A stretch of DNA of 64,000 bases from assembly GCF_045037415.1 (NCBI RefSeq), contig NZ_CP173438.1. One strand, written 5' to 3'. The stretch's first letter is position 1; each line of letters starts with the position of its first letter. Below are positions 45,001 through 51,000 of the stretch, piece after piece. The position numbers are program-made. The DNA comes from Escherichia coli (GTDB taxonomy: Bacteria; Pseudomonadota; Gammaproteobacteria; Enterobacterales; Enterobacteriaceae).

Positions 45001-48000
45001 AGACTTCACAAGAGGTTCCTGTTAGCTACGTTTTGCACGTTATTTACAGCAACTCTCCAGGCCGCCGATGTCACTATCACTGTTAATGGTCGGGTAGTCG
45101 CTAAACCATGCACTATTCAAACCAAAGAAGCTAACGTTAATCTCGGGGATCTTTATACACGCAATCTGCAACAACCTGGTTCTGCATCTGGCTGGCACAA
45201 TATTACTTTGTCATTAACCGATTGTCCGATTGAAACAAGTGCAGTGACGGCAATCGTGACAGGTTCAACTGACAATACGGGTTATTACAAAAATGAAGGT
45301 ACTGCCGAAAATATTCAGATAGAGCTAAGGGATGACCAGGATGCGACGTTAAAAAATGGCGATAGCAAAACGGTTATTGTTGATGAGATCACTCGTAATG
45401 CACAGTTTCCACTTAAGGCAAGAGCTATCACGGTGAATGGAAACGCAAGCCAGGGAACGATCGAGGCGCTAATCAATGTGATCTATATCTGGCAATAACA
45501 TCAATTTGATTTTATTTGCCTCCTTTTTAAATCAATTTTTTAACCTTAGGATATATCATGGGTAAAACATTCAGTATAAAGGTCCTGTTCGGTATTTATC
45601 TTCTATTAATGGCAGGCAAAGTTTTTGCCTTTAGTTGTAATGTCGATGGCGGGTCAAGTATTGGAGCAGGTACAACCTCTGTTTATGTTAATCTCGATCC
45701 TGTAATACTACCGGGCCAGAATCTGGTTGTAGACTTGTCTCAGCATATAAGTTGCTGGAATGATTACGGCGGCTGGTACGACACTGATCATATAAACCTG
45801 GTACAAGGATCAGCTTTCGCAGGCTCCCTACAGTCATATAAAGGATCACTGTACTGGAATAATGTGACCTACCCCTTCCCGTTGACGACAAATACCAACG
45901 TATTGGATATTGGTGATAAGACACCGATGCCATTACCGTTAAAACTCTATATTACCCCAGTCGGAGCAGCCGGTGGAGTTGTCATAAAATCAGGGGAAGT
46001 TATTGCCCGTATTCATATGTATAAAATTGCCACGTTAGGAAGCGGAAATCCACGTAATTTTACGTGGAATATTATTTCAAATAACAGTGTTGTTATGCCA
46101 ACAGGCGGTTGCACCGTTGATAGTCGTAATGTCACCGTGAATCTCCCGGACTTTCCTGGAAGCGCAGAAATACCCCTTGGTGTATATTGCTCTAGCGAAC
46201 AAAAGCTCTCATTTTATCTTTCGGGTGCCACCACTGACAGTGCCCGACAAGTGTTTGCTAACACAGCACCAGATGCAACAAAAGCATCGGGCGTGGGTGT
46301 CTCTCTGATGCGTAATGGAAAAACACTGGCAACAGGAGAAAATGTCTCCCTGGGGACAGTAAATAAAAGCAAAGTACCTCTGGGTTTAAGCGCAACCTAT
46401 GGACAAACAGGAAATAAGGTTGCAGCCGGAGCCGTCCAGTCAGTCATTGGTGTCACTTTTATCTATGAATAATTGTGATTTTGACATTAGTCTATGCGCT
46501 CCATTCACGAAAATTGCGCGGATAATTATTTTGTGAAGGCTATTATCCTACACTTGTAAGAAAATCCGCGCACAATTGAAGCCAGAGTCTTATTTTTTAT
46601 ATTGAGAATTATGTTAATTTAAACCCTATGAGAGATGATGCTTAACTTATCGTATTTATACTACTCTATTATTTAACGATAATAGAGTAAAAATAGTAAG
46701 AGAGTAGTCCCCTACTCTTATATATCCATGTTGACGATAAACCCTATGTATATATTGTGCATCATCGCTATTACAAATCCTAATAATTCATTTCCACACA
46801 GGATAAGCAGATGAAGAAAAAAATTGAATCCTACCAGGGAGCTGCCGGTGGTTGGGGTGCTGTTAAATCCGTAGCGAATGCAGTACGTAAGCAGATGGAT
46901 ATACGCCAGGATGTTATTGCCATGTTTGACATGAATAAGCCAGAGGGCTTTGACTGTCCGGGATGTGCATGGCCAGATCCTAAGCACAGTGCGTCATTCG
47001 ACATTTGTGAAAACGGCGCAAAAGCAATCGCCTGGGAAGTCACGGATAAGCAGGTAAATGCCTCTTTCTTTGCTGAGAATACGGTTCAATCATTACTTAC
47101 CTGGGGAGATCACGAGCTTGAGGCTGCGGGACGTCTCACTCAGCCTTTGAAATATGATGACGTCAGCGACTGTTACAAGCCATTAAGCTGGCAACAAGCT
47201 TTCGACGAAATTGGCGCTCGCCTTCAAAGCTATAGTGATCCCAATCAGGTTGAATTCTATACTTCGGGGCGCACTTCCAATGAAGCTGCCTTTCTTTATC
47301 AGCTTTTTGCCCGTGAATACGGGAGCAATAACTTTCCCGACTGCTCCAACATGTGCCATGAACCGACCAGTGTGGGATTGGCAGCGAGTATCGGTGTGGG
47401 TAAAGGGACCGTGTTGCTGGAAGACTTTGAGAAATGCGATTTAGTCATTTGCATTGGGCATAACCCTGGTACAAACCACCCTCGCATGCTGACTTCGTTG
47501 CGCGCTTTAGTGAAACGGGGAGCGAAAATGATCGCTATCAACCCTCTACAGGAACGTGGCCTGGAGCGATTTACCGCACCGCAAAACCCGTTTGAAATGC
47601 TGACGAACTCTGAGACTCAGTTAGCCAGTGCCTACTATAACGTGCGCATTGGTGGCGATATGGCGTTGCTCAAGGGGATGATGCGCCTGTTAATTGAGCG
47701 CGATGATGCTGCAAGCGCCGCAGGTCGGCCCTCATTGCTGGATGACGAATTTATTCAAACGCATACCGTCGGCTTTGACGAGCTACGCCGTGACGTGCTC
47801 AATTCCGAGTGGAAAGATATCGAACGTATTTCTGGACTAAGTCAGACACAAATCGCCGAACTTGCTGATGCATATGCCGCTGCCGAACGAACCATTATCT
47901 GTTACGGAATGGGGATCACTCAGCACGAACATGGTACCCAGAACGTACAGCAACTGGTCAATCTGCTGTTGATGAAAGGTAACATTGGCAAGCCTGGTGC

Positions 48001-51000
48001 GGGTATCTGCCCACTACGAGGTCACTCTAATGTACAGGGCGACCGAACCGTCGGTATCACCGAGAAACCGTCTGCAGAGTTTCTGGCTCGCCTGGGTGAG
48101 CGCTATGGCTTCACCCCACCTCATGCACCTGGACATGCTGCAATAGCCAGCATGCAAGCTATATGTACGGGGCAAGCTCGAGCATTGATCTGCATGGGGG
48201 GCAACTTTGCACTGGCAATGCCAGATCGGGAAGCGAGCGCTGTACCGTTAACGCAATTAGATCTGGCGGTACACGTAGCCACTAAGCTTAACCGCTCTCA
48301 TCTGCTGACCGCACGGCATAGCTATATTCTGCCGGTTCTGGGACGTAGCGAGATTGACATGCAAAAAAGCGGTGCGCAGGCGGTAACCGTTGAGGATTCA
48401 ATGTCGATGGTTCATGCCTCGCGTGGTGTGTTAAAACCCGCCGGTGTAATGCTGAAATCAGAGTGTGCAGTGGTCGCGGGAATCGCGCAGGCAGCACTAC
48501 CCCAGAGCGTGGTAGCCTGGGAGTATCTGGTGGAAGATTATGATCGCATTCGCAATGACATTGAAGCTGTGCTGCCAGAGTTTGCCGACTATAACCAGCG
48601 CATCCGTCATCCTGGTGGTTTTCACCTGATAAACGCAGCTGCTGAAAGGCGCTGGATGACGCCGTCAGGTAAGGCTAATTTCATTACCAGCAAAGGGCTG
48701 TTAGAAGATCCTTCTTCAGCGTTTAACAGTAAGCTGGTCATGGCGACAGTACGCAGCCACGATCAGTACAACACGACGATTTATGGTATGGATGATCGCT
48801 ATCGAGGTGTATTCGGTCAACGAGATGTGGTCTTTATGAGTGCTAAACAAGCTAAAATTTGCCGTGTAAAAAACGGCGAAAGAGTTAATCTTATTGCACT
48901 CACGCCAGACGGTAAACGTAGCTCACGCCGCATGGATAGATTAAAAGTGGTCATTTACCCTATGGCTGACCGCTCACTGGTGACCTATTTCCCAGAATCG
49001 AATCACATGCTAACACTTGATAACCACGATCCATTAAGTGGCATTCCTGGCTATAAAAGTATTCCGGTTGAATTAGAACCATCAAATTAATTCTCCTCCT
49101 CATTTCTTCTGCTGTCATCCGCACAGCAGAAGAATTCCTCATTGACTATTATCGCGCAATTTGCTCACATGGATTAAATTAAACTACACACTATAAGATA
49201 TAAACCTCTGCCTACAGTTGTAAGAAACTCCGCTCAGTACTGAAGTGCCAGTCCTATTTCCTCTTTTATCCAGCCTGTTATATTAATCATACTGATTAAC
49301 GATTTTTAACGTTATCCGCTAAATAAACACATTTGAAATGCATGCGACCACAGTGAAAAACAAAATCACGCAAAGAGACAACTATAAAGAAATCATGTCT
49401 GTAATTGTGGTTGTCTTGTTACTGACACTTACGTTGATAGCCATTTTTTCGGCAATTGATCAGCTGGGCATTTCAGAAATGGGTCGCATGGCAAGAGATC
49501 TTACACATTTCATTATCAATAGTTTGCAAGACTGAAAATAAACAGCAAATTATACATGAAAAATGTTAAAAAAGTATCGATAAAAACTTTATTATTTTAA
49601 GGAGATAAAATGTCGCTCGTTTGTTCTGTTATATTTATTCATCATGCCTTCAACGCTAACATTTTAGATAAAGATTACGCCTTCTCTGACGGCGAGATCC
49701 TGATGGTAGATAACGCTGTTCGCACGCATTTTGAACCTTATGAGCGGCATTTCAAAGAAATCGGATTTAATGAAAATACCATTAAAAAATATCTACAATG
49801 CACTAACATCCAGACAGTGACGATGCCTGTTCCTGCGAAGTTTTTACGTGCTTCAAATGTACCGACTGGATTGCTTAATGAAATGATTGCTTATCTCAAC
49901 TCGGAAGAACGCAATCATCATAATTTTTCAGAGCTTTTGCTTTTTTCTTGCCTGTCTATTTTTGCCGCATGCAAAGGTTTCATTACACTATTAACTAACG
50001 GTGTGCTATCCGTTTCCGGGAAAGTAAGAAATATTGTCAACATGAAGCTGGCGCACCCATGGAAGCTGAAAGATATTTGTGACTGCCTGTACATCAGTGA
50101 AAGCCTGTTGAAGAAAAAACTAAAGCAAGAGCAAACGACATTCTCACAGATTCTTTTAGATGCCAGAATGCAGCACGCGAAAAATTTGATACGCGTAGAA
50201 GGTTCAGTCAATAAAATTGCTGAACAATGCGGTTATGCCAGTACATCTTATTTTATTTATGCGTTTCGCAAACATTTCGGCAACAGTCCGAAGAGAGTTT
50301 CTAAGGAGTACCGTTGTCAAAGGCACACGGGTATGAACACGGACAACACGATGAATGCTTTAGCTAGTTGATTATTTGCTAACGAGTAGTCAACCACACA
50401 CGCTGCGTAAGAATTAAATGGGGCAGCCATTCCCTGCCCCGCGTTGTTTCCAGGCGATATATTTCTTGAAATAAATAAGTGACAGCCATCACATATTTAT
50501 GCATTTTCATAACCTGTTGCATGATTATTTATGATCTCAGCTCGGCAATTTGTCAGTGAAATACAATAATTTATTAAATATCAATAGATTAGTTGTTTAT
50601 CGGCGAGAAATTACTTAGTAGAACAGAAAGTAATGTCAACGCGTTATGGACTGTTATTTCCCTTTTTTTAGCTAAATCTGCTATCTCTTTATGTGACTAA
50701 CTTCACTTACATTCACTTATTTCTCTTCGTAAAATTACTTTGGAATTAAGTACAATAAGAAGAGGAACATTTATGAAGTCTGCATTAAAGAAAAGTGTCG
50801 TAAGTACCTCGATATCTTTGATACTGGCATCTGGTATGGCTGCATTTGCTGCTCATGCGGCAGATGATGTAAAGCTGAAAGCAACCAAAACAAACGTTGC
50901 GTTCTCAGACTTTACGCCGACTGAATACAGTACCAAAGGAAAGCCAAATATTATCGTACTGACCATGGATGATCTTGGTTATGGACAACTTCCTTTTGAT

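Follow-up and report, generated by a model that had tools for sequence, protein, structure and literature searches.

EvgS/EvgA of Escherichia coli is homologous to BvgS/BvgA (PMC8174306). At Bordetella promoters, FeBABE cleavage places head-to-head BvgA dimers at intervals of 22 bp, starting on a strong upstream site and passing over weak, hardly recognizable sites to a poor -35, and at Pfim3 the last BvgA site is co-centric with the -35 (PMC7250471). NarL, a regulator of the same family, activates via the carboxy-terminal domain of the RNA polymerase alpha subunit (alpha-CTD) and not via sigma region 4 (PMC10853779). Here we compare with these systems two EvgA promoters, those of ydeP and safA-ydeO, that lie 2.66 kb apart in a window of 64,000 nucleotides from the E. 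coli contig NZ_CP173438.1 (assembly GCF_045037415.1). Both promoters and their EvgA boxes are already known and are textbook direct targets: ydeP is directly regulated by EvgA (PMC8174306), and safA-ydeO is transcribed from an EvgA-regulated promoter (bioRxiv 10.64898/2026.05.06.723403). The two promoters resemble each other well beyond the 18-bp box, and we hold it on balance probable that they are diverged copies of one EvgA promoter-plus-leader module of about 117 bp, with a geometry fixed across the promoter class and a putative array of EvgA dimers.

The window contains the E. coli ydeQ-ydeP-safA-ydeO region, and the stretch 46300-49500, in which ydeQ is represented by its end only, is 100% identical to many E. 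coli chromosomes; gene names and coordinates were transferred from the RefSeq annotation of an identical genome. The box consensus is said to be TTCYTACANNTGTARGAA, a form reportedly going back to Masuda and Church in 2003 and Itou et al. in 2009. Upstream of both ydeP and safA lies an 18-bp inverted repeat of the type TTCYTACA-N2-TGTARGAA with one mismatch each (Table 1), and according to annotation and published work the genes downstream of both boxes are documented EvgA targets. The core pattern CCTACANTTGTAAGAAA occurs exactly twice in the 64 kb, at 46547 and 49211, against an expectation of 0.04, and the two promoter strings singled out by an earlier sequence-only reading of the window were found in place at 46547-46598 (ydeP) and 49211-49267 (safA). 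Positions are hereafter counted from the end of the box, with +1 at 46563 in ydeP and 49227 in safA, a constant offset of 2664 bp.

That reading had claimed that the two promoters stay alike for longer than the box itself, which holds beyond chance and over a greater length than it had seen. Between +1 and +33 the promoters are identical, without gaps, at 23 of 33 positions (binomial p = 1.1e-7), a value matched by none of 200,000 shuffles, and the anchored extension score of 14 downstream of the boxes is equalled by 1.5e-5 of random window pairs. Upstream of both boxes there is no ydeP/safA similarity (extension score 0). From +34 to +62 another 15 of 29 positions agree, including TGTTAATTTAA in ydeP against TGTTATATTAA in safA at +50 to +60, and no other pair among the six EvgA promoters considered below has comparable similarity there. 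Counted from the box start to +62, 53 of 80 positions are identical (the box was compared by eye, the rest taken from the segment counts). The likeness then crosses the start site: within the leader, +75 to +101 is identical at 20 of 27 ungapped positions when a divergent ydeP allele is set against one common safA allele (local alignment p = 0.002), bringing the collinear, ungapped likeness to about 117 bp in total. Gapped alignment of the two regions gave zero net gap, and the gapped reading of GCCAGAGTC against GTGCCAGTC is unneeded because the register is constant. As for other causes of likeness, a search of Rfam for structured RNA gave no match at E <= 1, and the list of open reading frames (ORFs) holds no small gene across the shared blocks.

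The shared positions are also those that natural populations keep. A scan of metagenome contigs recovered 83 ydeP-type and 72 safA-type promoter copies, representing 28 and 32 distinct haplotypes, and a separate genome scan supplied one divergent Escherichia lineage. Haplotype positions -15 to +7 are fixed by the search pattern and were disregarded; within the test range of +8 to +62, 26 of the 32 positions shared between ydeP and safA were invariant, versus 9 of the 23 unshared ones (Fisher p = 0.0017, Mann-Whitney p = 2e-4). The part common to ydeP and safA is thus the part that Escherichia keeps, which bears out the earlier proposal of a conserved composite promoter module as opposed to a chance resemblance of AT-rich DNA. 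Conserved in both promoters are the box, +1 to +19, +24 to +35, and +50 to +60 and beyond, while +20 to +23 and +36 to +49 vary freely in both. In safA, GTCCTATTTCC at +25 to +35 is essentially invariant across the 32 haplotypes. Upstream of ydeP relatives outside Escherichia no box was found, and phylogenetic footprinting is therefore confined to this genus.

The same register recurs across the known EvgA promoters. Six EvgA-activated promoters of K-12 were compared, namely ydeP, safA, emrK, frc, yfdX (proximal box) and yegR, each box being oriented toward its gene. Box-anchored, ungapped pairwise identity over +1 to +33 is mostly 12-19 of 33, with frc-yegR at 9/33 and ydeP-safA as given above, and flanks pointing away from the regulated gene reach 6-12 of 33. 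Conservation in register downstream of the box exceeds that in random register with p < 1e-4 for all six and about 1e-3 when one promoter per similar pair is used. Five columns, C+9, A+10, T+26, C+27 and T+31, are invariant in all six promoters, with no such column on the other side of these boxes. All six also have a -10-like hexamer, TAnnnT, starting at +53 or +54 (p < 2e-4), and so place the box at a distance from the core promoter that is typical of the class; this rule comes from the present alignments and is not a published criterion. In emrK, frc, yfdX and yegR, natural variants retain the conserved region, and CATATT of frc is improved to TATATT at +52 among them. Judged from these alignments, the functional layout holds for EvgA promoters as a class and is not confined to ydeP and safA.

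What is peculiar to ydeP and safA is the further reach of their likeness. Past about +33, emrK, frc, yfdX and yegR have no comparable similarity to either of them, and some 13 of the 23 identities within +1 to +33 are specific to the pair and not class-wide, yet conserved in populations; the TG extension of the -10 and the leader block are likewise restricted to the pair. The promoters frc and yfdX are each other's best match, with 19 of 33 positions identical after the box and an identical CTCTCTGATT at +23 to +32. In K-12, yfdX has two EvgA boxes 38 bp apart from start to start (locus L002, 15501-15518 and 15539-15556), and it is the proximal box, the weaker of the two, that alone keeps the class register with the -10. 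Among the further targets that the sequence-only reading had proposed for comparison, emrK and yfdX share the box-to-core spacing. As for gadE, it is described in the literature as EvgA-activated, and the K-12 hdeD-gadE intergenic region (L004, 2569-3366) contains no EvgA box at up to 4 mismatches, so that any direct EvgA regulation of gadE must use a much weaker site.

Two of the conserved blocks resemble EvgA half-sites. With a weight matrix built from 14 primary half-sites and scores averaged over the six promoters, the best non-primary position was +25 (p = 6e-4) and the second best +3 (p < 2e-4) under a random-register null. Both peaks are forward, which is the orientation of the promoter-distal half-site, and they still rank 1 and 2 when four promoters are used. 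Forward half-site-like starts accordingly fall at -17, +3 and +25, in steps of 20 and 22 bp, two helical turns each; counted from the first primary half-site, the elements begin 20 bp and 42 bp further down. The matrix scan of the six promoters gave no half-site-like signal upstream of the box. The possibility that another full inverted repeat follows the box was rejected, as none exists at up to 4 mismatches and only forward half-site-like signals were found. In ydeP, element 2 reads TCYKA and is followed by the TT that opens a vestigial -35; it is nearly invariant in the 28 haplotypes, and its single variant, TCTGATT, is the form found in frc and yfdX.

The position of the core promoter is tied to published work in ydeP. 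A 2024 study of CsrA used a "ydeP 5' leader (-178 to +10)" made with a primer starting ATGAGAGATGATGC, and in K-12 the first base of ATGAGAGATGATGC lies 178 nt before the ydeP ATG, exactly at +66 after the box, equivalent to 46628. A start near +65 had been predicted from the extended -10 before this leader end was located, and the ydeP -10 hexamer ends 7 nt ahead of it. With the leader 5' end at +66, the ydeP box is centred at -74.5; by analogy, the safA start is predicted near 49291. Start-site supplements of genome-wide studies held nothing usable for these genes. Both promoters have the features of an extended -10 sigma-70 promoter, that is, a TG one base before the hexamer at a proper distance from the start, and this TG is missing from emrK, frc, yfdX and yegR. 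The sole exception to the near-invariance of the safA extended -10 is a TGC variant in the divergent lineage. Relative to a start at +66, the hexamer at -35 to -30 (+31 to +36) is TTTTTT for ydeP and TTTCCT for safA; the true -35 region of both promoters is poor, with just the opening TT kept.

Several other core elements were tried and discarded. A scan for consensus promoters returned only TTGAAG-16-TATATT (46576-46603) in ydeP and nothing in safA. As a ydeP -10, its TATATT (46598-46603) becomes TTTATT in the divergent lineage, has no counterpart at that position in any other EvgA promoter, and lies 25 bp upstream of the start of the published leader. Its TTGAAG is replaced by TTAACG in some natural haplotypes and stands 47 bp upstream of the leader 5' end; located at -52 to -47 of that end, the xTGAAG motif is therefore probably not a -35. 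In safA, TTTTAT (49264-49269) as a -10 is freely variable in nature. The idea in the sequence-only reading that the two promoters share a spacing to the -35 survives as a fixed distance between box and core promoter.

Taken together, this layout recalls BvgA-type promoters. EvgA, a BvgA homologue among the response regulators of the NarL/FixJ type, has a Response_reg receiver domain and a GerE/LuxR domain; the farthest upstream of the sites is the high-affinity inverted repeat of the box, the sole strong one; and a poor -35 lies next to or co-centric with the proximal site, the third predicted site being centred at -32.5. In place of the approximately 22-bp dimer spacing of BvgA there are equally oriented peaks 20 and 42 bp further down, with weak scores and second halves that are not recognizable. 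The class layout would accordingly consist of an 18-bp inverted repeat, the strong site, centred about 74.5 bp before the start, two weak elements on the same helix face, a poor -35, and a -10 hexamer that follows the box at 53-54 bp and has the TG extension as reinforcement in ydeP and safA. Phosphorylated EvgA would bind the strong box and nucleate further EvgA dimers in steps of about 21 bp, with dimer centres near -74.5, -54.5 and -32.5 if each element forms the upstream half of a dimer site of 18 bp. The last dimer would lie on the -35 region and replace the missing -35 contact, as BvgA does at Bordetella promoters. The BvgA geometry is the closest match among the systems compared, and an array of EvgA dimers is therefore the preferred mechanism; that EvgA possibly occupies the weak elements is suggested by the sequence statistics and the BvgA analogy. 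A wider version, in which EvgA drives all of its promoters through a three-dimer array on one face and new genes were recruited in Escherichia when a ready promoter module of about 100 bp was copied to an adjacent place (from ydeP to safA and from yfdX to frc), is offered tentatively and seems to us doubtful.

A number of observations weigh against this picture. Both extra elements are weak, with mean matrix scores that are still negative, and just the upstream half of each putative secondary site can be recognized. A dimer at -32.5 is unusual and, among the compared systems, documented only for the Bordetella fim promoters, and C+9 A+10 with the A-rich run that follows, together with TT at +31/+32, could equally be contacts of alpha-CTD and sigma. 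The ydeP start rests on primer design in one paper and those of the other five promoters on analogy. The six promoters are not independent, the effective sample being about four because ydeP/safA and frc/yfdX are similar pairs. Finally, an independent trace of duplication is missing: there is no flanking similarity or repeat, and no single-copy lineage was found.

Some of these points would suit class I-type activation by a single EvgA dimer, in which only the 18-bp box is bound and alpha-CTD sits on the conserved DNA between box and -35. The CA and A-rich run near -57 to -53 would then be an alpha-CTD site, and TCYKATT an unusual sigma or alpha contact close to the -35. On the CAP scale, -72.5 is a class I position, and the box centre of -74.5 lies within about 2 bp of it. 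C+9 A+10 and the A-rich sequence after it fall where a distal subsite of an upstream (UP) element is expected, and T+31 and T+32 are the first two bases of the -35 hexamer. The NarL study quotes the CAP-scale position -61.5, and NarL, being of the same family, acts through alpha-CTD (PMC10853779). We nevertheless consider this explanation unlikely. Class I activation places no sequence requirement beyond helical phasing on the DNA between site and -35, and here that DNA holds invariant columns and conserved blocks. These blocks match best to the EvgA half-site matrix, 20 and 42 bp along and in the same orientation, an arrangement not expected from alpha-CTD binding, and +1 to +10 of ydeP and safA is G+C-rich (TCCGCGC), unlike UP elements. 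The two mechanisms are not exclusive, as BvgA promoters have alpha-CTD and the activator on the same DNA segment.

A second regulator common to ydeP and safA, which the sequence-only reading had suggested, would bind the pair-specific blocks TCCGC, xTGAAG, TGTTAwwTTAA and GATGCTTAAC; a feedback repressor such as YdeO, GadE/RcsB or PhoP could be imagined. The pair-specific yet population-conserved identities in +1 to +33 would be accounted for in this way. The -10 block TGTTAwwTTAA (TGTTAATTTAA at 46612-46622 in ydeP, TGTTATATTAA at 49276-49286 in safA) resembles what we take to be the 3' half of the GadE/RcsB GAD box TTAGGATTTTGTTATTTAAA and, if that is real, could presumably be a site of feedback repression. 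In the literature, PhoP repression of safA, YdeO feedback on safA and indirect YdeO repression of ydeP have been reported. Still, we found no recognizable consensus for YdeO, GadE/RcsB or PhoP established at these blocks, PhoP repression is reported for safA only, and xTGAAG is lost from the ydeP alleles with TTAACG. According to EcoCyc, EvgA is the sole regulator common to ydeP and emrKY (PMC8174306), a statement that does not directly address ydeP and safA. Nothing points to a second protein, and the class-wide extra elements score as weak EvgA half-sites; we judge this explanation distinctly improbable. Lastly, the likeness beyond the box might be a neutral remnant of old duplicates without a function of its own, which would agree with a collinear, ungapped similarity that includes transcribed sequence and is absent upstream of the box. 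It is disfavored and in our view very improbable: shared positions are invariant in natural populations where unshared ones vary, and the spacing and several bases recur in four other EvgA promoters.

For the pair-specific part of the likeness, the fact that it runs in register into the transcribed leader makes common descent a better explanation than a binding site. Collinear, ungapped similarity that continues past protein-binding motifs is what paralogous modules would be expected to have, and the simplest account is that the ydeP and safA modules, in tandem, would have arisen by common descent, with selection keeping the working positions; the duplication itself is inferred from the present-day sequences. 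All recovered Escherichia lineages have both modules and non-Escherichia ydeP loci have neither; in front of the genes for YdeP relatives of Edwardsiella, Yersinia, Raoultella and others the DNA is unrelated and lacks an EvgA box. In Edwardsiella (L007, L008, L010), YdeP reaches 85% amino-acid identity, versus 56-67% in other scanned enterobacteria, and the ydeP upstream region is short, unrelated and devoid of an EvgA box. This pattern suggests either horizontal transfer of ydeP or recruitment of EvgA control in Escherichia only, and the absent box is consistent with a lineage-specific origin of the ydeP module. The mutual best match of yfdX and frc hints that the regulon has grown by local copying of promoter modules.

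The features of both modules are collected in Table 1. Within the shared leader block, GATGCTTAAC of ydeP varies in just one of the 28 ydeP haplotypes. The safA leader (49301-49327 and metagenome loci) occurs in nature in two forms, one with CGATTTTTAACGTTATCCGCTAAATAA and one with CGATGCTTAACGTCATTCGTTTAATAA, the second being nearer to that of ydeP; the two modules, 2.66 kb apart, may have undergone gene conversion.

Table 1. Features of the ydeP and safA promoter modules; positions refer to the 64,000-nucleotide window.
Feature	Sequence	Position	Strand	Remarks
Primary EvgA box, ydeP promoter	ATCCTACACTTGTAAGAA	46545..46562	+	1 mismatch to TTCYTACANNTGTARGAA; centre about -74.5 from leader 5' end
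Weak half-site-like element 1, ydeP	TCCGCGCA	46565..46572	+	+3 to +10; ends in invariant C+9 A+10
Pair-only motif, -35 lookalike	TTGAAG (safA CTGAAG)	46576..46581	+	about -52 to -47; probably not a -35
Weak half-site-like element 2, ydeP	GTCTTATT	46587..46594	+	+25 to +32, about -41 to -34; T+26, C+27, T+31 invariant
Extended -10, ydeP	TGtTAATTT	46612..46620	+	hexamer 46615-46620; kept in divergent alleles
Probable ydeP start	A	46628	+	+66 after box; 5' end of published leader primer
Leader block common with safA	GATGCTTAACTTATCG...	46637..46663	+	20/27 identical, divergent ydeP versus common safA allele
ydeP coding sequence		46811..49090	+	ORF list and RefSeq annotation; gene driven by first module
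Primary EvgA box, safA-ydeO promoter	TGCCTACAGTTGTAAGAA	49209..49226	+	1 mismatch to TTCYTACANNTGTARGAA; 112 bp upstream of annotated safA ATG
Weak half-site-like element 1, safA	TCCGCTCA	49229..49236	+	+3 to +10; ydeP register, invariant CA
Weak half-site-like element 2, safA	GTCCTATT	49251..49258	+	+25 to +32; class-wide conservation
Extended -10, safA	TGtTATATT	49276..49284	+	hexamer 49279-49284; essentially invariant; in register with ydeP and other four
safA leader block in ydeP register	GATTTTTAAC... or GATGCTTAAC...	49301..49327	+	dimorphic
safA coding sequence		49339..49536	+	RefSeq annotation transferred; first gene of safA-ydeO, driven by second module

The 183-nt ydeP leader has some features of its own. 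It contains a perfect 11-bp palindrome, TACTCTATTAT-TTAACG-ATAATAGAGTA (46663-46690), and a second hairpin, AGAGTAG-tccc-CTACTCT (46701-46718), with a single-sequence minimum free energy of -40.8 kcal/mol for the leader. Among 21 natural leader variants, covariation analysis of the hairpins found wobble changes only and no compensatory pairs. An upstream ORF of 28 codons (46728-46814) overlaps the ydeP start codon in ATGA; its own ATG is changed to ATA or AGG in some natural haplotypes and early stops occur in others, and it is therefore probably not a gene. Fourteen nt past the ydeP stop codon, TTCTTCTGCTGT and ACAGCAGAAGAA form a perfect 12-bp stem with a 7-nt loop (49104-49134), which, with no T-run after it, could be no more than a weak terminator ahead of the safA promoter.

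The locus varies in larger ways as well. RefSeq matches include some E. coli chromosomes with IS1 inside ydeP, and in one metagenome contig (L126) the promoter boxes are 1,398 bp apart as compared with the usual 2,664 bp, which implies an internal deletion of ydeP. The contig JARKOR010000108.1, filed under a metagenome-assembled genome of 'Candidatus Nanosynbacter', carries ydeP with a 100% identical protein and both E. coli EvgA promoters and is almost certainly a mis-binned E. coli contig.

Overall, the interpretation given by the sequence-only reading is partly supported. What the spacing rule, the half-site-like elements and the paralogy add is incremental, a modest refinement of a well-studied system whose known biology is left unchanged. 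They matter in practice, since ydeP and safA-ydeO head the acid-resistance cascade EvgA-YdeO-GadE, and reporters of ydeP and safA are the standard means of following EvgS activity. A functional promoter that runs from the box to about +66 in strict register defines the length of DNA needed for a faithful reporter or a regulon search, and a search for EvgA targets can be made sharper with the spacing rule than with the 18-bp box by itself. The layout also offers a testable link from EvgA to the well-dissected mechanism of BvgA.

The BvgA promoters Pfha, Pfim3 and Pptx (PMC7250471) resemble the EvgA promoters in having a homologous regulator, a strong distal inverted repeat, weak sites on one face and a poor -35. 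They differ in that their geometry was shown by FeBABE cleavage and genetics, whereas that of EvgA comes from sequence statistics alone, and in their uniform steps of 22 bp, where EvgA has steps of 20 and 22 bp and one recognizable half per secondary site. NarL at ogt and yeaR (PMC10853779) belongs to the same family, and ogt likewise has an upstream site, at -77.5, in tandem with a promoter-proximal one; its two sites, each a full 7-2-7 repeat, are separated by 33 bp (-77.5 and -44.5), whereas the EvgA boxes have no full repeat downstream. Within the evg region, yfdX and frc are, like ydeP and safA, adjacent EvgA promoters of the same direction and mutual best matches, but their likeness ends near +33 and they have no TG extension, whereas that of ydeP and safA continues through the -10 into the leader. 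Published descriptions of EvgA boxes (PMC8174306, PMC4283999, PMC3720670) cover the same genes, 18-bp boxes and regulator and end at the 18-bp box; the present comparison adds to them the spacing of 53-54 bp between box and -10, the five invariant bases, two half-site-like elements, the extended -10 and the in-register likeness of the ydeP and safA leaders.

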